A stretch of 64,000 bases of DNA from Eledone cirrhosa (GCA_964016885.1 OZ024741.1:382726001-382790000); one strand, 5' to 3'; positions 46,436-60,476 are shown, counted from the first letter of the stretch. Numbers and translations: made by a program. The notes: a model not told the origin generated them from the letters alone.

Positions 46436-47368
46436 TATATATATATATATATATACATATATAACGAAGGAAATGTTGTAAGGAACCAGATGGACCATAA
46501 CGCACCAAAGTACTCAATACTTAGGGTAGTAGAGTGGGTAATAGGAACGAGTAGGACCCCGACGGCTGAGCTCAAGCAGTTTCAACGGCTAATTCTGGAC
46601 TAATTGTAGAGCTAACTCTGTTGAAAGGACTTGACTGCTGTTTCTAGTTGTCGATAACCCTATTCACGCCGGTGGGACGAAGCTGGTATGATGTGTGTAT
46701 TTCTAGTAGATACAGCATGTGTTAGTGGCCAGTCGCTGATTTGAACTTAATGCGTAGACATAGATCGCTGGACTTCTTCCTTGTTGAAAATCCAAGTACC
46801 GGCATCCGCCGTTTACCATTCGATTAATTGGTGAAATATATTTCTTTAATGGAATATATACAGGGAAGATTAATCATATTATAAGGTAACTATTTTTGAA
46901 GTTCTAGTTAACTTTATTTAGTTACCTACCTAACTATGTGTGCTTACACACTTGTAAAAATTATCTCCTGTGATTATTCATATGTTTACTTATATGTTAA
47001 TCAATTTCTAGTTGTTATATATATATGAAATAATTAAGTCAAATATGTAAAATTTGGCTTCGTTTATTACAAATTATAGATATACTGCTATATATATTTC
47101 GGTGACAGCCATCATTGTCTGTGACCTCTTCATGCATATATATATATGTATGTGTGTGTGTCTGTGTATGTGTGTGTATGTGTGTATGTGTGTATGTATG
47201 TATATGTGTGTATATATATATGTATATATATATATATATGTGTGTATATGTATTTATATATATATATATATACTTATATATATATATATATATGGCCATA
47301 TATATATATATATTTGTATATATGTGTATGCGTATTTTAAAAATATATATATGTATATCTATGTACAC

Positions 47369-47450
<82 letters not shown>

Positions 47451-47453
<3 letters not shown>

Positions 47454-50400
47454 GCTCTAGACCTAGCTATTGACCAGTTAATTTTATTGTTCATTTTTTG
47501 TCGATTCTATTAAATGATGAATAGCCCCTGTTTATTTTAACATGTCTATTGAGCACTCTTATTCGATATGTGTATTTCCACATTTTCCCGAATATTTTTC
47601 GCGGATATAGAGGTTATCTCCCTTGCCGAATTCCATGTGCGTATTTAGCTTGGGTTATGCCTTTTCATTCGTTTGGACAAAGCTCGTTGAGGAAGTAAAT
47701 TTCCTGTCCGCTGGTATCTAGAAGTCTTATATATTTTTATGTGAGCTGATAGAGAACAGTTTAAGTATTTACAGAAACCCAAGAAGCTAGATTTAACATC
47801 TTTCTAGCGGGTCCGGGTATGCTTTTTACATTCATTTGATTTATTGATTTATTGATTTTCTATCTGAGTGTCCCGAATCTTCCAGATCGCAACTTTTCGA
47901 TCGTACGGTTGATTATAGACTTGTTCTATGTGTGACGGTATTTTAACGATAGTTATAGCTCTGATTTATCTAAATTATGGAGCCCTCTGCCGCTCATATC
48001 GAATTTTGTTTATCGTGAACTCGTGCGCCGATTTTTCGATACTCGATTATTCTACTATATTTAGCTCTAGACCTAGCTATTGACCAGTTAATTTTATTGT
48101 TCATTTTTAGTCGATTCTATTAAATGATGAATAGCTCCTGTTTATTTTAACATGTCTATTGAGCACTCTTATTCGATATGTGTATTTCCACATTTTCCCG
48201 AATATTTTTCGCGGATATAGAGGTTATCTCCCTTGCCGAATTCCATGTGCGTATTTAGCTTGGGTTATGCCATTTCATTCGTTTGGACAAAGCTCGTTGA
48301 GGAAGTAAATTTCCTGTCCGCTGGTATCTAGAAGTCTTATATATTTTTATGTGAGCTGATAGAGAACAGTTTAAGGATTTACAGAAACCCAAAAAGCTAG
48401 ATTTAACATCTTTCTAGCGGGTCCGAGTATGCTTTTTACATTCATTTGATTTATTGATTTATTGATTTTTTATCTGAGTGTCCCGAATCTTCCAGATCGC
48501 AACTTTTCGATCGTACGGTTGATTATAGACTTGTTCTATGTGTGACGGTATTTTAACGATAGTTATAGCTCTGATTTATCTAAATTATGGAGCCCTCTGC
48601 CGCTCATATCGAATTGTGTTTATCGTGAACTCGTGCGCCGATTTTTCGATACTCGATTATTCTACTATATTTAGCTCTAGACCTAGCTATTGACCAGTTA
48701 ATTTTATTGTTCATTTTTTGTCGATTCTATTAAATGATGAATAGCTCCTGTTTATTTTAACATGTCTATTGAGCACTCTTATTCGATATGTGTATTTCCA
48801 CATTTTCCCGAATATTTTTCGCGGATATAGAGGTTATCTCCCTTGCCGAATTCCATGTGCGTATTTAGTTTGGGTTATGCCTTTTCATTCGTTTGGACAA
48901 AGCTCGTTGAGGAAGTAAATTTCCTGTCCGCTGGTATCTAGAAGTTTTATATATTTTTATGTAAGCTGATAGAGAACAGTTTAAGGATTTACAGAAACCC
49001 AAGAAGCTAGATTTATCATATTTCTAGCGGGTCCGGGTATGCTTTTTACATTCATTTGATTTATTGATTTATTGATTTTTTATCTGAGTGTCCCGAATCT
49101 TCCAGATCGCAACTTTTCGATCGTACGGTTGATTATAGACTTGTTCTATGTGTGACGGTATTTTAACGATAGTTATAGCTCTGATTTATCTAAATTATGG
49201 AGCCCTCTGCCGCTTATATCGAATTGTGTTTATCGTGAACTCGTGCGCCGATTTTTCGATACTCGATTATTCTACTATATTTAGCTCTAGACCTAGCTAT
49301 TGACCAGTTAATTTTATTGTTCATTTTTTGTCGATTCTATTAAATGATGAATAGCTCCTGTTTATTTTAACATGTCTATTGAGCACTCTTATTCGATATG
49401 TGTATTTCCACATTTTCCCGAATATTTTTCGCGGATATAGAGGTTATCTCCCTTGCCGAATTCCATGTGCGTATTTAGCTTGGGTTATGCCTTTTCATTC
49501 GTTTGGACAAAGCTCGTTGAGGAAGTAAATTTCCTGTCCGCTGGTATCTAGAAGTTTTATATATTTTTATGTAAGCTGATAGAGAACAGTTTAAGGATTT
49601 ACAGAAACCCAAGAAGCTAGATTTAACATCTTTCTAGCGGGTCCGTGTATGGTTTTTACATTCATTTGATTTATTGATTTATTGATTTTTTATCTGAGTG
49701 TCCCGAATCTTCCAGATCGCAACTTTTCGATCGTACGGTTGATTATAGACGTGTATAGACGTGTTCTATGTGTGACGGTATTTTAACGATAGTTATAGCT
49801 CTGATTTATCTAAATTATGGAGCCCTCTGCCGCTCATATCGAATTTTGTTTATCGTGAACTCGTGCGCCGATTTTTCGATAGTCGATTATTCTACTATAT
49901 TTAGCTCTAGACCTAGCTATTGACCAGTTAATTTTATTGTTCATTTTTAGTCGATTCTATTAAATGATGAATAGCTCCTGTTTATTTTAACATGTCTATT
50001 GAGCACTCTTATTCGATATGTGTATTTCCACATTTTCCCGAATATTTTTCGCGGATATAGAGGTTATCTCCCTTGCCGAATTCCATGTGCGTATTTAGCT
50101 TGGGTTATGCCATTTCATTCGTTTGGACAAAGCTCGTTGAGGAAGTAAATTTCCTGTCCGCTGGTATCTAGAAGTCTTATATATTTTTATGTGAGCTGAT
50201 AGAGAACAGTTTAAGGATTTACAGAAACCCAAAAAGCTAGATTTAACATCTTTCTAGCGGGTCCGAGTATGCTTTTTACATTCATTTGATTTATTGATTT
50301 ATTGATTTTTTATCTGAGTGTCCCGAATCTTCCAGATCGCAACTTTTCGATCGTACGGTTGATTATAGACTTGTTCTATGTGTGACGGTATTTTAACGAT

Positions 50401-50502
50401 AGTCATAGCTCTGATTTATCTAAATTATGGAGCCCTCTGCCGCTCATATCGAATTTTGTTTATCGTGAACTCGTGCGCCGATTTTTCGATACTCGATTAT
50501 TC

Positions 50503-50508
<6 letters not shown>
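47451..50508 (+). repeat. Tandem array of 5 x 610 bp monomers (retrozyme-like), TA-flanked
   Basis: ttagctctagacctagc starts at 47451, 48061, 48671, 49281 and 49901. Copy 4 has a 10 bp duplication. Confidence 0.95.
47682..47818 (+). ncRNA. Large hammerhead fold with UUGAGGA core in each 610 bp monomer (also 48292, 48902, 49512, 50132)
   Basis: GCUCG-UUGAGGA-a-GUAAAU..AUUUAC-a-GAAA-CCC..GCUAGA..UCUAGC GGG-UC-CG(A/G)GU. Confidence 0.6.
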
Positions 50509-50562
<54 letters not shown>

Positions 50563-50567
<5 letters not shown>

Positions 50568-51858
50568 AATATAGACATAGAATATTCGAAAATATTCCGC
50601 ATGTTTACAATAAACATTTTGAAGACCTAATCGCTATAGAATAGAATACGTCACGTATTACAATTAGATTCTCGATAAAAGCAAGGGAAGTAATCTACGC
50701 GTTTCATTCTCGTTAGAAATCATCAGGACTACATATCCAGTGCTTTTATCGAGAATGACACAGCTAGAGACTTATAGAATACTTAGCTGTGTACAGGAAC
50801 TGGTTTGAAAGAGCGGTTGCCGGTCCGGCAGAAATTAGAAATTGGAATAAATGCTCTGAAATAGCGATATATATGTGAATATAGACATAGAATATTCGAA
50901 AATATTCCGCATGTTTACAATAAACATTTTGAAGACCTAATCGCTATAGAATAGAATACGTCACGTATTACAATTAGATTCTCGATAAAAGCAAGGGAAG
51001 TAATCTACGCGTTTCATTCTCGTTAGAAATCATCAGGACTACATATCCAGTGCTTTTATCGAGAATGACACAGCTAGAGACTTATAGAATACTTAGCTGT
51101 GTACAGGAACTGGTTTGAAAGAGCGGTTGCCGGTCCGGCAGAAATTAGAAATTGGAATAAATGCTCTGAAATAGCGATATATATGTGAATATAGACATAG
51201 AATATTCGAAAATATTCCGCATGTTTACAATAAACATTTTGAAGACCTAATCGCTATAGAATAGAATACGTCACGTATTACAATTAGATTCTCGATAAAA
51301 GCAAGGGAAGTAATCTACGCGTTTCATTCTCGTTAGAAATCATCAGGACTACATATCCAGTGCTTTTATCGAGAATGACACAGCTAGAGACTTATAGAAT
51401 ACTTAGCTGTGTACAGGAACTGGTTTGAAAGAGCGGTTGCCGGTCCGGCAGAAATTAGAAATTGGAATAAATGCTCTGAAATAGCGATATATATGTGAAT
51501 ATAGACATAGAATATTCGAAAATATTCCGCATGTTTACAATAAACATTTTGAAGACCTAATCGCTATAGAATAGAATACGTCACGTATTACAATTAGATT
51601 CTCGATAAAAGCAAGGGAAGTAATCTACGCGTTTCATTCTCGTTAGAAATCATCAGGACTACATATCCAGTGCTTTTATCGAGAATGACACAGCTAGAGA
51701 CTTATAGAATACTTAGCTGTGTACAGGAACTGGTTTGAAAGAGCGGTTGCCGGTCCGGCAGAAATTAGAAATTGGAATAAATGCTCTGAAATAGCGATAT
51801 ATATGTGAATATAGACATAGAATATTCGAAAATATACATAGAATATTCGAAAATATTC
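50563..51858 (-). repeat. 310 bp retrozyme-like tandem array, left arm (4 full copies plus partial)
   Basis: aatattcgaa at 50581, 50891, 51201, 51511 and 51821. Minus-strand HHRs at 50690, 51000, 51310 and 51620 (43 nt each). Confidence 0.95.
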
Positions 51859-54800
51859 CAAAATGTTTATTGTAAACATGCGGAATATTTTCGAATATTC
51901 TATGTCTATATTCACATATATATCGCTATTTCAGAGCATTTATTCCAATTTCTAATTTCTGCCGGACCGGCAACCGCTCTTTCAAACCAGTTCCTGTACA
52001 CAGCTAAGTATTCTATAAGTCTCTAGCTGTGTCATTCTCGATAAAAGCACTGGATATGTAGTCCTGATGATTTCTAACGAGAATGAAACGCGTAGATTAC
52101 TTCCCTTGCTTTTATCGAGAATCTAATTGTAATACGTGACGTATTCTATTCTATAGCGATTAGGTCTTCAAAATGTTTATTGTAAACATGCGGAATATTT
52201 TCGAATATTCTATGTCTATATTCACATATATATCGCTATTTCAGAGCATTTATTCCAATTTCTAATTTCTGCCGGACCGGCAACCGCTCTTTCAAACCAG
52301 TTCCTGTACACAGCTAAGTATTCTATAAGTCTCTAGCTGTGTCATTCTCGATAAAAGCACTGGATATGTAGTCCTGATGATTTCTAACGAGAATGAAACG
52401 CGTAGATTACTTCCCTTGCTTTTATCGAGAATCTAATTGTAATACGTGACGTATTCTATTCTATAGCGATTAGGTCTTCAAAATGTTTATTGTAAACATG
52501 CGGAATATTTTCGAATATTCTATGTCTATATTCACATATATATCGCTATTTCAGAGCATTTATTCCAATTTCTAATTTCTGCCGGACCGGCAACCGCTCT
52601 TTCAAACCAGTTCCTGTACACAGCTAAGTATTCTATAAGTCTCTAGCTGTGTCATTCTCGATAAAAGCACTGGATATGTAGTCCTGATGATTTCTAACGA
52701 GAATGAAACGCGTAGATTACTTCCCTTGCTTTTATCGAGAATCTAATTGTAATACGTGACGTATTCTATTCTATAGCGATTAGGTCTTCAAAATGTTTAT
52801 TGTAAACATGCGGAATATTTTCGAATATTCTATGTCTATATTCACATATATATCGCTATTTCAGAGCATTTATTCCAATTTCTAATTTCTGCCGGACCGG
52901 CAACCGCTCTTTCAAACCAGTTCCTGTACACAGCTAAGTATTCTATAAGTCTCTAGCTGTGTCATTCTCGATAAAAGCACTGGATATGTAGTCCTGATGA
53001 TTTCTAACGAGAATGAAACGCGTAGATTACTTCCCTTGCTTTTATCGAGAATCTAATTGTAATACGTGACGTATTCTATTCTATAGCGATTAGGTCTTCA
53101 AAATGTTTATTGTAAACATGCGGAATATTTTCGAATATTCTATGTCTATATTCACATATATATCGCTATTTCAGAGCATTTATTCCAATTTCTAATTTCT
53201 GCCGGACCGGCAACCGCTCTTTCAAACCAGTTCCTGTACACAGCTAAGTATTCTATAAGTCTCTAGCTGTGTCATTCTCGATAAAAGCACTGGATATGTA
53301 GTCCTGATGATTTCTAACGAGAATGAAACGCGTAGATTACTTCCCTTGCTTTTATCGAGAATCTAATTGTAATACGTGACGTATTCTATTCTATAGCGAT
53401 TAGGTCTTCAAAATGTTTATTGTAAACATGCGGAATATTTTCGAATATTCTATGTCTATATTCACATATATATCGCTATTTCAGAGCATTTATTCCAATT
53501 TCTAATTTCTGCCGGACCGGCAACCGCTCTTTCAAACCAGTTCCTGTACACAGCTAAGTATTCTATAAGTCTCTAGCTGTGTCATTCTCGATAAAAGCAC
53601 TGGATATGTAGTCCTGATGATTTCTAACGAGAATGAAACGCGTAGATTACTTCCCTTGCTTTTATCGAGAATCTAATTGTAATACGTGACGTATTCTATT
53701 CTATAGCGATTAGGTCTTCAAAATGTTTATTGTAAACATGCGGAATATTTTCGAATATTCTATGTCTATATTCACATATATATCGCTATTTCAGAGCATT
53801 TATTCCAATTTCTAATTTCTGCCGGACCGGCAACCGCTCTTTCAAACCAGTTCCTGTACACAGCTAAGTATTCTATAAGTCTCTAGCTGTGTCATTCTCG
53901 ATAAAAGCACTGGATATGTAGTCCTGATGATTTCTAACGAGAATGAAACGCGTAGATTACTTCCCTTGCTTTTATCGAGAATCTAATTGTAATACGTGAC
54001 GTATTCTATTCTATAGCGATTAGGTCTTCAAAATGTTTATTGTAAACATGCGGAATATTTTCGAATATTCTATGTCTATATTCACATATATATCGCTATT
54101 TCAGAGCATTTATTCCAATTTCTAATTTCTGCCGGACCGGCAACCGCTCTTTCAAACCAGTTCCTGTACACAGCTAAGTATTCTATAAGTCTCTAGCTGT
54201 GTCATTCTCGATAAAAGCACTGGATATGTAGTCCTGATGATTTCTAACGAGAATGAAACGCGTAGATTACTTCCCTTGCTTTTATCGAGAATCTAATTGT
54301 AATACGTGACGTATTCTATTCTATAGCGATTAGGTCTTCAAAATGTTTATTGTAAACATGCGGAATATTTTCGAATATTCTATGTCTATATTCACATATA
54401 TATCGCTATTTCAGAGCATTTATTCCAATTTCTAATTTCTGCCGGACCGGCAACCGCTCTTTCAAACCAGTTCCTGTACACAGCTAAGTATTCTATAAGT
54501 CTCTAGCTGTGTCATTCTCGATAAAAGCACTGGATATGTAGTCCTGATGATTTCTAACGAGAATGAAACGCGTAGATTACTTCCCTTGCTTTTATCGAGA
54601 ATCTAATTGTAATACGTGACGTATTCTATTCTATAGCGATTAGGTCTTCAAAATGTTTATTGTAAACATGCGGAATATTTTCGAATATTCTATGTCTATA
54701 TTCACATATATATCGCTATTTCAGAGCATTTATTCCAATTTCTAATTTCTGCCGGACCGGCAACCGCTCTTTCAAACCAGTTCCTGTACACAGCTAAGTA

Positions 54801-55351
54801 TTCTATAAGTCTCTAGCTGTGTCATTCTCGATAAAAGCACTGGATATGTAGTCCTGATGATTTCTAACGAGAATGAAACGCGTAGATTACTTCCCTTGCT
54901 TTTATCGAGAATCTAATTGTAATACGTGACGTATTCTATTCTATAGCGATTAGGTCTTCAAAATGTTTATTGTAAACATGCGGAATATTTTCGAATATTC
55001 TATGTCTATATTCACATATATATCGCTATTTCAGAGCATTTATTCCAATTTCTAATTTCTGCCGGACCGGCAACCGCTCTTTCAAACCAGTTCCTGTACA
55101 CAGCTAAGTATTCTATAAGTCTCTAGCTGTGTCATTCTCGATAAAAGCACTGGATATGTAGTCCTGATGATTTCTAACGAGAATGAAACGCGTAGATTAC
55201 TTCCCTTGCTTTTATCGAGAATCTAATTGTAATACGTGACGTATTCTATTCTATAGCGATTAGGTCTTCAAAATGTTTATTGTAAACATGCGGAATATTT
55301 TCGAATATTCTGTCTATATTCACATATATATCGCTATTTCAGAGCATTTAT

Positions 55352-55357
<6 letters not shown>
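51859..55357 (+). repeat. 310 bp retrozyme-like tandem array, right arm, inverted (11 full copies plus partial)
   Basis: aaatgtttat at 51861 + 310n up to 55271. Copies appear identical. Confidence 0.95.
52058..52100 (+). ncRNA. Minimal type I hammerhead ribozyme (repeated every 310 bp to 55158-55200; 15 copies in total)
   Basis: GUAGUC-CUGAUGA-u-UUCU aacg AGAA-u-GAAA-CGCG-UA-GAUUAC, flanked by a perfect 16 bp inverted repeat attctcgataaaagca/tgcttttatcgagaat. Confidence 0.92.
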
Positions 55358-55648: not shown

Positions 55649-56889
55649 CCGAATTAGTGTTGTATAGACAATACATATGTTGTTTAGGTGTATAATTTTG
55701 TCAATACTCTGATATGCCCAGTTCCTGGTTGGGTTGTTTTTTCACTGAGGAACTGGAATCATATGAATTCAAACAAACGAATTCAGTGTTAAAGGGCCTC
55801 TTCTCCTCTCATTGCTCAGTTGTTAGAACATTCCTCATTCAAAAATCTATAGAAGTTCGTTCTGAGGCAAGCCAATCTGTAGTTGTTGTTCTTGTTATTG
55901 TTAGGTACATCTGACCTCAATTCTTGTGTTGGTAGTGTTGTTATTGTTGGAGTTAGCTTAACAAATTGATAAAGTGGTAGAAGGAACAAGGTGGCAAAGG
56001 ATCAAAATAACAAAAAATGTCAACCTTCCCATTGGTCAGTCTGAGAGTATTCCTCAGTCAGAAGTCTATAGAAATTATTTCTGGTGTGAGGCTCCCTGTA
56101 CTGTTTTGTTTGCTATTGTTAAGTACATTTGTTCTCTACTATTATTTCGGTAGTGTTGTTGGTGTTGTGGTCAGCTTATGTCTTGCTGCTGCTGACAATT
56201 TAGAAGTATCTGTGTGTTATTTTTCTTCGTCCCTTCTGCCATCATCTCCCGTGGTGCTGGTGGTGGGGCGGTTCTTCCATGTATATGAAGAAATATAAGG
56301 CAATAAATGAAGAAAACAGAAAACTTGAAGAAAACAGAAAATAAATAATAAATAGAGAATAAAGAATAAATGAAAATTTGGTGAAAAAGTAATGAAAATG
56401 AATATGGAGAAGTGAAAAATAAAGTGTGTGTGTCCTATAACCAATCTCAAGGTCAGAAATATGTTGGATAGATTGGTATGAGGAACAAGATGTTAAAATA
56501 ATAACATAATAAGATAATAAAACAAAATGTCTTTGTGTTATAATCAATCTCAACTTAAAAATAAATATAAGGTGAAGAGAACAGAAAACAAATAAATTAA
56601 TAAAGAGAAATCAAGAATTAAAATTGGAAATTGAAAATCAGAAATCAAGTAAATTAAAATGTGTCTATGTTATATAGTCGTTGGCCAATTTATAATGGCT
56701 GTGTCCGATTCAATCTCTAGGCTATCATGGTGTCTGCTCAGCCTGGGTTGTTCCCTATGGCTTGAGGGGAGTTCACAAACTAGGGTGTTGTTACTGCCCA
56801 TATAGCTTGAGGGAAGTCTGGCCGAGAGGTGTCTACATGTTCTGGAGAAGTCCCTATAGCTTGAGGGGAGTTCACATCTTCTTGTGTTG

Positions 56890-59561
56890 CTACTGTCCAT
56901 ATATATTGAGGAAGGTCCCGGCTCTAAGGTGTCTGCATGTCCCGAAGAAGTCGGTTTTGAGGTTTATCAGGCCGCTTCCACCTCTTAGTATCCCGAGGCT
57001 CTCGTTCAGACATAGTTTGCATATGCAAGATCCCCCTTTATCGGGTGGTACTTTCCTGATGATGTACCAGGCCAGAGAGTACGGGGTCCTGTCCAGCTTA
57101 AGCTTCCAGATCAGGTCGGAGAGAGTCGTGCTTTTCCTTTTGGCCTCCTTATTGAATGAATGGCGATGGTTGAACCAGCGTTCTTTAAAGCTCGTTGATG
57201 TGGCTCCTATGTAGAGGTGTTCGGATTTGGGGTTTTTAACCCTACAACCGTATACTAGGTTCTTCTTAAGGCATTCATTAACAAGGGGGCATGATTCGGG
57301 GTTTCTGCAGTTGCAGAGCGTGGTCGACCTCTGCGTGCGTAGATTGGGGTTCCCGTTAGGTGTTACATGGTGGTCTTCCCCCAGGCATGGTGGGGGGTCC
57401 CTGGGTCTATTTGCGTTTTTTGGGTGCGCCCTGGGTCCCCCTTTCCCTCCTTTCACATTGTTCTGCTGAGTGCTTGTATTGCCATCTTCCGGTTGTGTGT
57501 GGTTTTTGAGCGTACTCCTGTTGATGCTAGCTATGTGTTGGGCCAGATTTCTCGTGGTGGAATACGAGAGCTTCACAGTGTGTCTGTGGTATCTATGGTC
57601 CCACGGGAAGCATTTATCAAGTGCACCAAAGAATGATCGGGCCAAGCTGTTCTTTAGGGCCGCTGAGTAGGGTGGGTTCTACCACGTGATTTTTCTGTGT
57701 CTCCTCCTATATGTGTGGGCCGGGGGCGTCGTGATTTGTTGGAGATTTGTTGGGTTGCTGGTGGTTCCCGCACTGTTGCTTCCTCTTTGGGCGCTATGCT
57801 TTTTGTTATCTTCACGGCCCGAATCTGTGGGGTGGTCTTTGCCCGCGCTGGGAGATCTATCGTTGGGTGGTGCCCCGTTCCCCCGTACGTGTTCTGCGGT
57901 TGGGGTCGTCGGTCCTGGGGTGGTTAGCGTCACCCCTGAGACTGCTACTCATATTGGGCTTCATCTCGTGGTTAAGCGTACTAGTCACCAACGCCCGTGT
58001 GGTGGTGTCGGACACATGGTGCCTATTTGTTTCTGCTCTGCCTCTATTGTTAGGGTCCCCCCCTCCCGGGAAACGCAGGTGTGGGTGTCCGTTGGGCCAT
58101 CCCCATCCCGGCGTTTCGGACTATATGTTATATTTTGGCCATGTACCGCCTTATTTAGAGCTGCGTTGTAATATTCCGCGTAGTTATTGAATATTTCCTT
58201 ACTTGAGTACAGGCTGGAGATCCTGTCCGAGACACTCATTACCACTGCCTTAGTTATGGATCTAGGGTGGTTTGATTTGGCGTTAACATATACGAGTTTC
58301 TCGTTGGGCTTGTGGTAGGGGTAGTATTGTTCGGTGTTCAGGTTTCGGGTGGTGTCTATGAAGTTAACTACCTTCCTATTTGGGTGGAAGTTCTATACTG
58401 AGCCCCTGGTTCTTAAATAAATGGCAAATACGCCTCCTCATTCCCTCCAACATATTAATGATGTGGTCATATACTGTAAATAGAGCATCATCACGATATA
58501 ATCCGCTGCCCAGGTAGGGGATTTCATCTTTTATCTGCTTCAGCAGGTAGAGCCCAACAAGGTCCGTTACCTGTGCTGAGTCGCGGGAGCCCATCGTGAT
58601 GTCTAAGTTATTTGGCCAATCACTCCTGGTCCAAAGGTCTCCATAGAAACGGATTAAGGTCTTTCCTGCGGCGTGGATGATGCTCACCTCCTCTCGGGTT
58701 AGGTCCGTATTGGACATCGCTAAACATAGGGCCTTATTAAGTACTGTGGGTTAGATTGAGGAGTAGTAGCTTGCGATGTCCAGTTGTATAAAGCTGGCCT
58801 TACTTTTCTCATGCAGTATCTTAAACCATTCTATTACTTCTCCCGTGCATGACCATTGCTGTAATTTAGTTTTCTTCCGAAGCTTGGACAAAATCCTATC
58901 CAGTATTCTTTTACTGACGATCCCTAGGTCAGATCTAGAGGGGGCTATTAGTCTGACAGGGAAGTCGGACTCAAAGTTTGGCTTGTGATCTTTAAGGGTA
59001 ATCCGCGGCTCCCTTGGTTGGTATGGGGCCGTCCTGTCCTCTAGGCCGAGTCTGGATATAATCCTGTAAGCTGTGGCATTTATCTCACCCAGGGTAAATC
59101 CAGGTGTTTATTTGTAGCACTTCCTCAGTTCCCTGAGAATTAGCTTATTGTACAGTTCAGTGTTCATGTTGTAGAGGTTGTTTGTTTTGTCAGCATGTAC
59201 AAGTATTCCAGTTGTCTCTTTAAGTACTGTAATCCGGTTTCTCAGGTCTCTGAGGTATTCCTGACGTCTGGTTGGGTTTCCGGAGAATTTAATGTTGGAT
59301 ATGATGTTAATCATCTCGTTTTCAAACTCCTCCATTAGTCTGTTGTGTGTGTGCGGGGGGGGGGGGATTCCTCCTTGATCGAAAAAGGTACTCCATGTTT
59401 CGTGTGTTGGTAATTTTTTGCGTTCCTCTTTCGAAGTGGAACGCTTTCCATCTCATCCTACGGATGAGGGAGTCCGTACTCTTGATGAGATCACTGGTGT
59501 ATTCTCGTTTGTCAGGTAGGGGGATGTCCTTCAGTGACGCTAAGGTTACCAGTTTATCCAT
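56890..59561 (-). pseudogene. Naiad-type RT plus GIY-YIG ORF with a few frameshifts and stops
   Basis: SLKDIP..IRRMRWKAF; HADKTNNLY; KDHKPNF; DITMGSRDSAQVTDLVG; GLYRDD; RKITW; CNCRNPESCPLVNEC..VYGC..YIGATSTSFKERWFNHRHSF..CKLCLNE..CRH. Confidence 0.92.
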
Positions 59562-60476
59562 AGTGACTTAAGTCCCCTACTGTTTGAAGCGCTCAACCCG
59601 TGTGGGAGCTAGATATATTTTGAGTATATGTTGGTTGTATACCAACACTTCAGTATGCAGGCTATTCTCTATTTATTATTTATTTTCTGTTTTCTTCATG
59701 TTTTCTGTTTTCTTCATTTATTACCTTATATTTCTTCATATACATGGAAGAACAGCCTCACCACCAGCACCACGGGAGATGGTGGCAGGAGCGACGAAGA
59801 AAAGACACACACAGATACTTCTAAATTGTCAGCAGCAGCAAGACATAAGCTGACCACAACACCAACAACACTACCGAAATAATGGTAGAGGTCAAATGTA
59901 CGTAACAATAGCAAACAAAAACAGTACAGGGAGCCTCGCCCCAGAAAGAATATCTATAGACTTCTGACTGAGGAATGCTCTCAAAACTGACCAATGGGAA
60001 GGTTGACATTTTTTTGTTGTTTTCTTCCATCACCACCTTGTTCCTTCTACCACTTTATCAATTTTTTAAGCTAACTCCAACAATAACAACACTACCAACA
60101 CAAGAATTGAGGACAGATGTAACTAACAATAACAAGAACAACAACTACAGATTGGCTTGCCTCAGAACGAACTTCTATAGACTTTTGAATGAGGAATATT
60201 CTAACAACTGAGCAATGAGAGGAGAAGAGGCCCTTTGACGTTGAAATTCGTTTGTTTGAATTCATATGATTCCAGTTCCTCAGTGAGATAACAACCCAAC
60301 CAGGAACTGGGCATATCGGAGTATTGACAATATTATACACCTAAACAACATATGTATTTTCCATACGACACTAATTCAGACTGCCTGAAGAGGTCACAGC
60401 CAAAGATGGCTGTTACCGATATATATCGCAGTAATGAACCGAGCTAAATTTAAAACATTTGAGTTTTTATTTTACC

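Follow-up and report, generated by a model that had tools for sequence, protein, structure and literature searches.

The locus considered here raises the question of whether a 610-bp tandem repeat lying within a (TA)n run is ordinary satellite DNA or a mobile element built around a working hammerhead ribozyme. In the window (the whole stretch of Eledone cirrhosa DNA that was analysed, 64,000 nucleotides long), the 610-bp unit is repeated five times head to tail on the + strand at 47451-50510, with units starting at 47451, 48061, 48671, 49281 and 49901 and measuring 610, 610, 610, 620 and 610 bp. The fourth unit carries a 10-bp insertion, and identity among the five is 96.8-99.7%. The array was found where it had been predicted, as a five-unit insertion between two (TA)n runs, the upstream side of the target microsatellite occupying 47193-47450 and the downstream side, into which the family's fixed 3' end runs, 50506-50564. 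An internal TATAT is present at every unit junction (48666-48670, + strand, in copy 2), and dispersed copies end there in (TA)n. The 610-bp units contained no reading frame of 120 aa or more. Contigs from four sequencing runs, of unrecorded kind, cover the units and cannot span the five-unit array.

Every unit contains the sequences of stem I (GCUCG/CG(A/G)GU), the core UUGAGGA, a stem II of 78 nt in total closed by GUAAAU/AUUUAC, GAAA, a stem III of ACCC/GGGU plus GCUAGA/UCUAGC, and then GUC. In hammerhead numbering the core reads U3 U4 G5 A6 N7 G8 A9, an extra A, G10.1 to C11.1, an extra A, and G12 A13 A14 A15.1. In copy 2 (48292-48428, + strand) stem I pairs 48292-96 with 48424-28, U3 to A9 occupy 48297-303, stem II extends from G10.1 at 48305 to C11.1 at 48382 with the extra A residues at 48304 and 48383, G12-A13-A14 lie at 48384-86, and stem III runs from A15.1 at 48387 to U16.1 at 48422, placing the predicted cut after C17 at 48423. 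Copies 1, 3, 4 and 5 fold on the same strand at 47682-47818, 48902-49038, 49512-49648 and 50132-50268, with predicted cuts after 47813, 49033, 49643 and 50263, respectively. The stems, the UUGAGGA core with its U3-G8 wobble and the GUC site named in the original prediction are present in all five units, and the stem I polymorphism it described was recovered as G, A, G, U, A in copies 1-5, the U of copy 4 giving a U.U mismatch. The fold as drawn had overlooked the extra A on either side of stem II. The array and the hammerhead-like fold are real.

The fold has type I topology, with three helices about a junction and the open end in stem I. It departs from better known hammerheads in that G10.1-C11.1 is present yet separated from A9 and from G12 by one extra A each (in 55 of the 56 copies described below in either case) instead of being joined directly to them, in that the 3-8 pair of the window copies is a U3.G8 wobble and not a strict Watson-Crick pair, and in that stem III (36 nt, -10.2 kcal/mol) is neither absent nor the tiny palindrome of minimal, dimer-dependent hammerheads of Penelope-like elements (PLEs). 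The canonical short loop 2 is absent from the unit's fold. The base of stem II is unconserved between subfamilies past its first 2-3 pairs; a conserved UUAAGGA in the 3' strand of this stem is at most a candidate for a contact between loops 1 and 2. A relaxed type I descriptor found any match in 3 of 3000 dinucleotide shuffles of the unit, and a score of at least 14 was reached in none of the 3000, against 15.5 for the real unit. In single-sequence folding the hammerhead is 1.5 kcal/mol less stable than the minimum-energy fold, and the ensemble gives stem II a pairing probability of only about 0.33 because a competing hairpin occupies the core. Rfam returned no hammerhead for the whole window at the gathering threshold and none for 48000-52600 at E<=10; weak miRNA matches in the window were discarded as the inverted junction and the TA runs.

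A search of the 3.0-Gb genome with the unit gave 2,453 candidates, 40 of which were scored, with 82 matches. The last 19 bases of the unit continuing into TA (TATATA) had 1,578 exact matches, and a reversed-pattern control had none. For the analysis of 5' ends, the first 90 of 100 places listed were taken by position, all on contig C1; 53 of these insertions were at most one unit long, 34 were of one to two units and 3 were longer, and 59 of 89 5' junctions abutted TA. The dispersed copies thus combine what is seen in retrozymes (tandem units that do not code for protein, one type I hammerhead in every unit, and dispersed monomers, dimers and multimers) with what is seen in non-autonomous PLEs, namely insertion into (TA)n microsatellites, partial tandems, 5' ends truncated to varying extents and a 3' end fixed at the internal TATAT. 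The fixed 3' end, 5' truncation and partial tandems are those described for PLEs in the text of Craig et al. (2021; PMC8557442), and TATAT would be the start site of reverse transcription. Two sister families with homology to the 610-bp unit along its length were met beside the copies: family 2, with 5,012 candidates and 576 exact 3' ends, and family 3, with 2,951 and 363. Sister families and PLE ends often adjoin within one TA run, as successive insertions (L011, L015, L077).

Conservation was assessed on 56 copies that span the hammerhead; they come from 48 insertions and match the window unit at 75-99% identity. A variant common to at least three of the copies was found in 0 of 17 core columns and in 171 of 537 others (p=0.0024). 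U4 G5 A6, A9, G12 A13 A14, A15.1-U16.1 and H17 had no variant common to copies, and U3 was present in all 56; N7 was G in 18, A in 14 and U in 24, and position 8 was G in 29 and A in 27. Pairing was examined in an alignment of 28 sequences (527 cells), the copies being related and not independent; the stems were paired in 97.0% of cells, a value reached in 0 of 500 shuffles, with slid registers giving 28-50%. Pair 10.2-11.2 varied among U-A, U.G and C-G, and one stem III pair between A-U and G-C, but changes on both sides occurred in only 2 of 19 pairs, and 312 of 500 shuffles gave as many. Covariation among genomic copies, which had been named as a check, was therefore borne out insofar as the stems stay paired, but not as an excess of two-sided changes. 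RNAalifold predicted stems I and III independently; it did not recover the base of stem II, where the alignment is gapped.

On a tree of the 56 rows, with the position 8 column masked in rows of families 1 (the 610-bp family) and 2, at least five changes at position 8 are forced. The window's U3.G8 clade stems from U3-A8 ancestors, one of its subclades reverts to A8, and C3-G8 is confined to part of family 3. Among relatives the 3-8 pair is U3-A8 or C3-G8, with C3.A8 in 0 of 44 cores; positions 3 and 8 can pair throughout, as U.G, U-A or C-G. U3.G8 was rejected as a decayed C3-G8, since the tree derives it from U3-A8. Because of this ancestry, and because position 8 switches, the wobble is a tolerated state of an amplifying lineage and not the decay of one copy; for the same reason G8A is as natural a comparator as U3C. 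The conservation pattern indicates that the hammerhead fold is under selection. With the dispersal, the conserved core and the pairing kept in diverged copies, the earlier description of a retrozyme carrying a conserved non-canonical type I hammerhead holds.

The 5' ends of dispersed insertions form a hotspot at unit positions 371-389 (48431-48449 on the + strand in copy 2), 7-25 nt 3' of the predicted cut, with a mode at +13 (11 ends). In the interval from -5 to +30 around the predicted cut, which was picked after the ends of three families had been viewed, so that the p values are optimistic, and which was used unchanged in the later controls, lay 22 of 87 ends in family 1 (hazard x4.7, p=5e-8), 6 of 28 in family 2 (x3.1, p=0.02, one duplicate row dropped) and 12 of 30 in family 3 (x7.3, p=2e-6; by eye, L251 among these 12 probably reaches further). 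In each of families 1-3, the 36-nt window with the most ends in the whole unit was the one at the cut site (24 ends versus 11 elsewhere, 7 versus 4 and 12 versus 4, respectively), and no 5' ends were found in the unit's best TA-like stretch (278-285). The mode at +13 falls at a TACAT resembling the target and not at +0 to +4, despite a TAT at +4. In family 1, 17 of 71 cDNAs stop at the first site and 5 of 18 at the second (p=0.004). Linear monomers simply mixed with clean circles would not leave stops at both sites; the stops are in line with multimers that were cut in part, with template jumps or with pausing at a ligated junction. The prediction of a slow-cleaving variant that yields multimers is in this way indirectly supported, about a quarter of cDNAs stopping at each predicted site, the second included. 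A ranking of cleavage between families as C3-G8 > U3-A8 > U3.G8 (first-site stops 12/25, 6/18 and 17/71, p=0.04-0.19 depending on the window) was rejected, as the families mix core states.

Three other families were used as controls. An autonomous PLE with a minimal hammerhead had 4 of 30 ends at the site (p=0.35), and 14 of 30 lay instead 57-75 nt upstream of it, probably at a transcription start; a fixed 5' end need therefore not be a cut. A 310-bp family neighbouring the array had 4 of 14 unclipped ends at the site (p=0.08), and an 845-bp family had 3 of 27 (p=0.37). In the latter only 1 of 29 ends lay at the base of a stem II of -36 kcal, and the lack of a pile at so strong a stem argues against simple stalling at helices. 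The pile-up of 5' ends in the three related families suggests partial cleavage in vivo.

The history of the array and of its source was reconstructed from shared variants. Array units 2 and 5 have four variants in common and units 3 and 4 two; an origin of the five-unit array in one pass of a rolling circle was rejected, as non-adjacent units share variants, and the distribution indicates growth by later duplication or from a mixed source. In dispersed copies, repeats inside one insertion are set apart by 94 differences over 6,997 sites (1.3%), nearly all of them private, against a median of 3-20% between insertions, so that both repeats would come from one RNA sequence, as expected of a circle, of a jump or of a young tandem source. 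The 41 of 48 insertions that are 85-99% like the window unit carry private changes of at most 1.3% and form a ladder on the tree, and the source lineage is therefore likely to have changed about ten times faster than the copies aged, a gap for which exact-match sampling, which favours young copies, accounts only in part. Comparable variability was noted in the text of Cervera and de la Pena (2014; PMC4209133).

These results are probably best explained by a dispersed non-coding element, likely a non-autonomous PLE (a non-LTR retrozyme). Its type I hammerhead is large and conserved and probably cleaves itself only part of the time. A (TA)n-targeting PLE protein of Neptune/Nematis type would nick the microsatellite and prime reverse transcription at TATAT. 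The cDNA would extend back toward the ribozyme; on cut RNA it would end at about 0.38 or 1.38 units, and RNA that was uncut, re-ligated or jumped across (about three in four) would give longer-than-unit copies and possible new sources. With its long stem III the hammerhead would be able to fold in monomeric form, whereas the minimal PLE hammerheads depend on a dimer, and the U3.G8 wobble together with the A/A at the base of stem II may keep cleavage partial.

The same element and fold could also produce the hotspot if transcription started just 3' of the hammerhead and the ribozyme made only the 3' end of a unit-length RNA, or cut at another stage. The sharp pile of the autonomous PLE away from its hammerhead (14/30) is in keeping with this, as are the TCATT/TCAGT words that closely follow the cut on its 3' side in families 1 and 3 and that we take to be initiator-like, a mode at +13 and not +0, and the lack of a second pile elsewhere in the unit that could mark a start. 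We nevertheless consider a start site unlikely, since the piles of families 2 and 3, whose sequences differ there, both have their upstream edge within 0-4 nt of the predicted cut, and since several family 1 ends (371-379) fall 5' of the putative initiator A at 384. Selection on a non-cleaving structure (a protein-binding site or a pause for RT), with the hotspot made by RT stalling at the 3' base of stems I/III, would account for the restriction of the hotspot to families with a long stem III, and a possible extension of stem I would end near 376, the duplexes having only -5 to -7 kcal. C3U is expected to reduce hammerhead activity, as mutagenesis indicates. Against such a structure, the catalytic residues and GUC are all conserved and N7 is free, the pattern expected of catalysis, and far stronger helices, as well as equally stable windows of the unit, have no pile; stalling is on these grounds quite improbable.

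At the opposite extreme, the array would be ordinary satellite DNA with a chance or dead look-alike of a hammerhead, spread by DNA recombination. The variants shared by units 2/5 and 3/4 do speak for shuffling at the DNA level in this array, and Rfam gave no match, but satellite DNA would have to account for about 1,600 sites at which the 3' end is fixed and the 5' side truncated, for a conserved core, for a descriptor score that none of 3000 shuffles equalled, and for the small, mostly private differences within insertions beside the large ones between them. Satellite DNA is extremely improbable and already largely refuted.

For comparison with known systems, the text of the cited articles was used, together with further literature on hammerheads and PLEs (PMC7151607, PMC6765202, PMC8490949). 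The likeness to retrozymes is known here from genomic DNA; expression as circular and linear unit-length RNA belongs to the known retrozymes, and the 610-nt circRNA of the original prediction is, for this element, a putative product. As in animal non-LTR retrozymes, the repeats are non-coding, low in GC, tandem or dispersed, carry one type I hammerhead per unit and occur in a PLE-rich genome. The monomer had been called longer than typical, which is so against the 170-400 nt given in the text of Cervera and de la Pena (2020; PMC7229834) but not against the 51-972 bp in that of Li, Clavereau and Pollet (2026; bioRxiv 10.64898/2026.07.22.740005). The axolotl HHR_Amex2 is likewise mismatched (U.U) at the base of stem II, and the 2026 preprint reports that 8 of 9 Xenopus retrozymes failed to cleave in vitro. 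In contrast to the animal retrozymes as described in these texts, the 610-bp element has U3.G8/U3-A8, A on both sides of stem II, a 78-nt stem II and a 36-nt stem III, is strictly (TA)n-targeted, and has no pLTR homology to an autonomous PLE among the 50 GIY-YIG loci compared.

With the minimal PLE hammerheads, as set out in the text of Cervera and de la Pena (2014; PMC4209133), it shares type I topology, an extra nucleotide between A9 and G10.1, a conserved G10.1-C11.1, a short stem I and great sequence variability inside one genome. The same text reports U3-A8 in Schistosoma Cercyon elements and a large helix III only for fungal and protist PLEs. The minimal hammerheads it describes have no stem III or a tiny palindromic one and act as dimers; the 610-bp element differs in its long stem III, in the second extra A between C11.1 and G12, and in U3.G8 as a stable state. 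Natural core variants including U3-A8 covariation and a U10.1-U11.1 mismatch are documented by Perreault et al. (2011; PMC3088659), whose main text has neither U3.G8 nor A/A at the base of stem II. The 610-bp element resembles Neptune/Nematis-type and Naiad PLEs and non-autonomous Chlamys elements, according to the text of PMC8557442, in its partial tandems, 5' truncation, inversions and (TA)n targets, and reverse transcription would begin inside the RNA as it does for the Poseidon element PAc in the text of Frangieh et al. (2024; PMC11167929). The 610-bp element encodes no protein, unlike the Neptune/Nematis-type, Naiad and Poseidon PLEs, and its 3' end is an internal TATAT matching the target, whereas the PAc priming site is not homologous to its target. 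Frangieh et al. further report, in the same text, a PLE hammerhead that needed protein in order to cleave, that insertion in vitro could do without, and at whose site RNA-seq showed no ends.

The texts compared already document retrozymes that are non-autonomous PLEs, units of as much as 972 bp, the U3-A8 pair, an additional base following A9, and U.U at the base of stem II. The same literature, mostly the main text of open-access papers, contained no natural stable U3.G8, no A on both sides of stem II, no long stems II and III together in an animal retrozyme, and no 5'-end or truncation hotspots at hammerhead sites. Judged by its genomic copies, the 610-bp element behaves like a retrozyme and departs from the strict hammerhead core consensus in two features.

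It is possible, though we put this forward with some doubt, that the element represents a class of large hammerheads, as yet undescribed, that fold as monomers, carry A/A at the base of stem II, toggle their 3-8 pair among U-A, U.G and C-G and are tuned to cut only about a quarter of the time. Such hammerheads would determine in vivo where the template for retrotransposition has its 5' end, and would thereby control the number of longer-than-unit source copies. If so, the pile-up of 5' ends would be a genomic footprint of hammerhead cleavage in a Penelope-type cycle, and the change of at least 15% along the ladder, against about 1% of copy ageing, would reflect very rapid serial copying, possibly from RNA to RNA. 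The role of hammerheads in PLEs and retrozymes is debated, activity being weak in vitro and dispensable in one reconstituted system. The thousands of genomic cDNAs here are a countable read-out pointing to the predicted cleavage site, and the graded natural states of the 3-8 pair in one scaffold make the role directly testable. Surveys based on CUGANGA or Rfam miss thousands of conserved hammerheads in one genome.

A partner supplying the protein was sought among 10,596 GIY-YIG candidates in the genome, of which 150 were scored. One family of PLEs has a 938-aa stop-free frame with RT, CX4CxxC and GIY-YIG, a pLTR, and a minimal hammerhead with U3-A8; its copies are 92-99% alike, with 4,238 exact 3' ends in (TA)n. 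From its RT motif we take it to be Neptune proper. Its linker and C-terminal nuclease place it with Neptune/Nematis as these are described in the text of PMC8557442. At the young representative locus, L303 (G000:C1:145868000-145877000), the family is one in which 14 of 30 sampled insertions are pieces of about 205-223 bp ending 57-75 nt upstream of the cut site, likely at a start site in the pLTR. At L023 (G000:C2:146169953-146173555) an inverted and a direct PLE 3' piece are fused, with no TA between, to unit position 8, and the joint has a template-switch-like TAG microhomology. Of the 89 flanks sampled, 3 contain 3' pieces of this PLE, a number that a common target could by itself produce. 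No DNA homology was detected by blastn between three unit sequences and 50 GIY-YIG loci of the 10,596 candidates, so that the case for a partner rests on the shared target, similar youth and one chimera; a PLE of the L303 type is a plausible partner of the 610-bp element. Naiad PLEs were also considered for this role, since they target TA and lack canonical hammerheads. As for the broken PLE at 56890-59600, it was rejected as the evident partner, as its 3' region has a different, canonical minimal hammerhead. A two-copy 99-bp repeat (56752-56952) overlaps the end of this PLE frame and its 3' region.

The window and the genome contain further hammerhead elements. A second, classical retrozyme lies in the same TA run as 310-bp units at 50557-55357, with 4.1 inverted and 11.3 direct copies that are 99-100% alike. 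Each unit has a minimal type I hammerhead with a canonical core, U.U at the base of stem II and a palindromic stem III; the first copy on the + strand starts at 52058, with the predicted cut after 52094. The genome has 1,015 exact 3' ends of this family, and 16 of 30 sampled insertions exceed 1.5 kb. The unrelated TA-targeted 845-bp family (L385, L397 and L071-L078, e.g. G000:C1:14063564-14066588; 348 exact 3' ends) has a hammerhead with A on both sides of a long stem II (about 81 nt), C3-G8 and a short palindromic stem III. Many more hammerhead families, with U/U, A/A, C/A or A/G at the base of stem II, were seen at L001-L090 and L273-L322; Rfam detected none of those that lie in the window. 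The genome appears very rich in PLE-linked hammerheads.

A pattern search for a canonical C3 with A/A gave 96 matches against 14 in the control, a count rejected as unusable because about 27 of the 96 come from a single coding stretch that is repeated and that, in the four loci examined, belongs to a Helitron-type helicase frame. Such frames are abundant (L051, L060, L061, L067), and their codons mimic the hammerhead core pattern. The version of the A/A motif with a short stem II gave 17 matches against 5. At L079 (G000:C1:152492200-152502199), a 529-bp tandem array of about 13 units has an A/A hammerhead in which the triplet GUU is kept across units, and U17 recurs in further hammerhead families.
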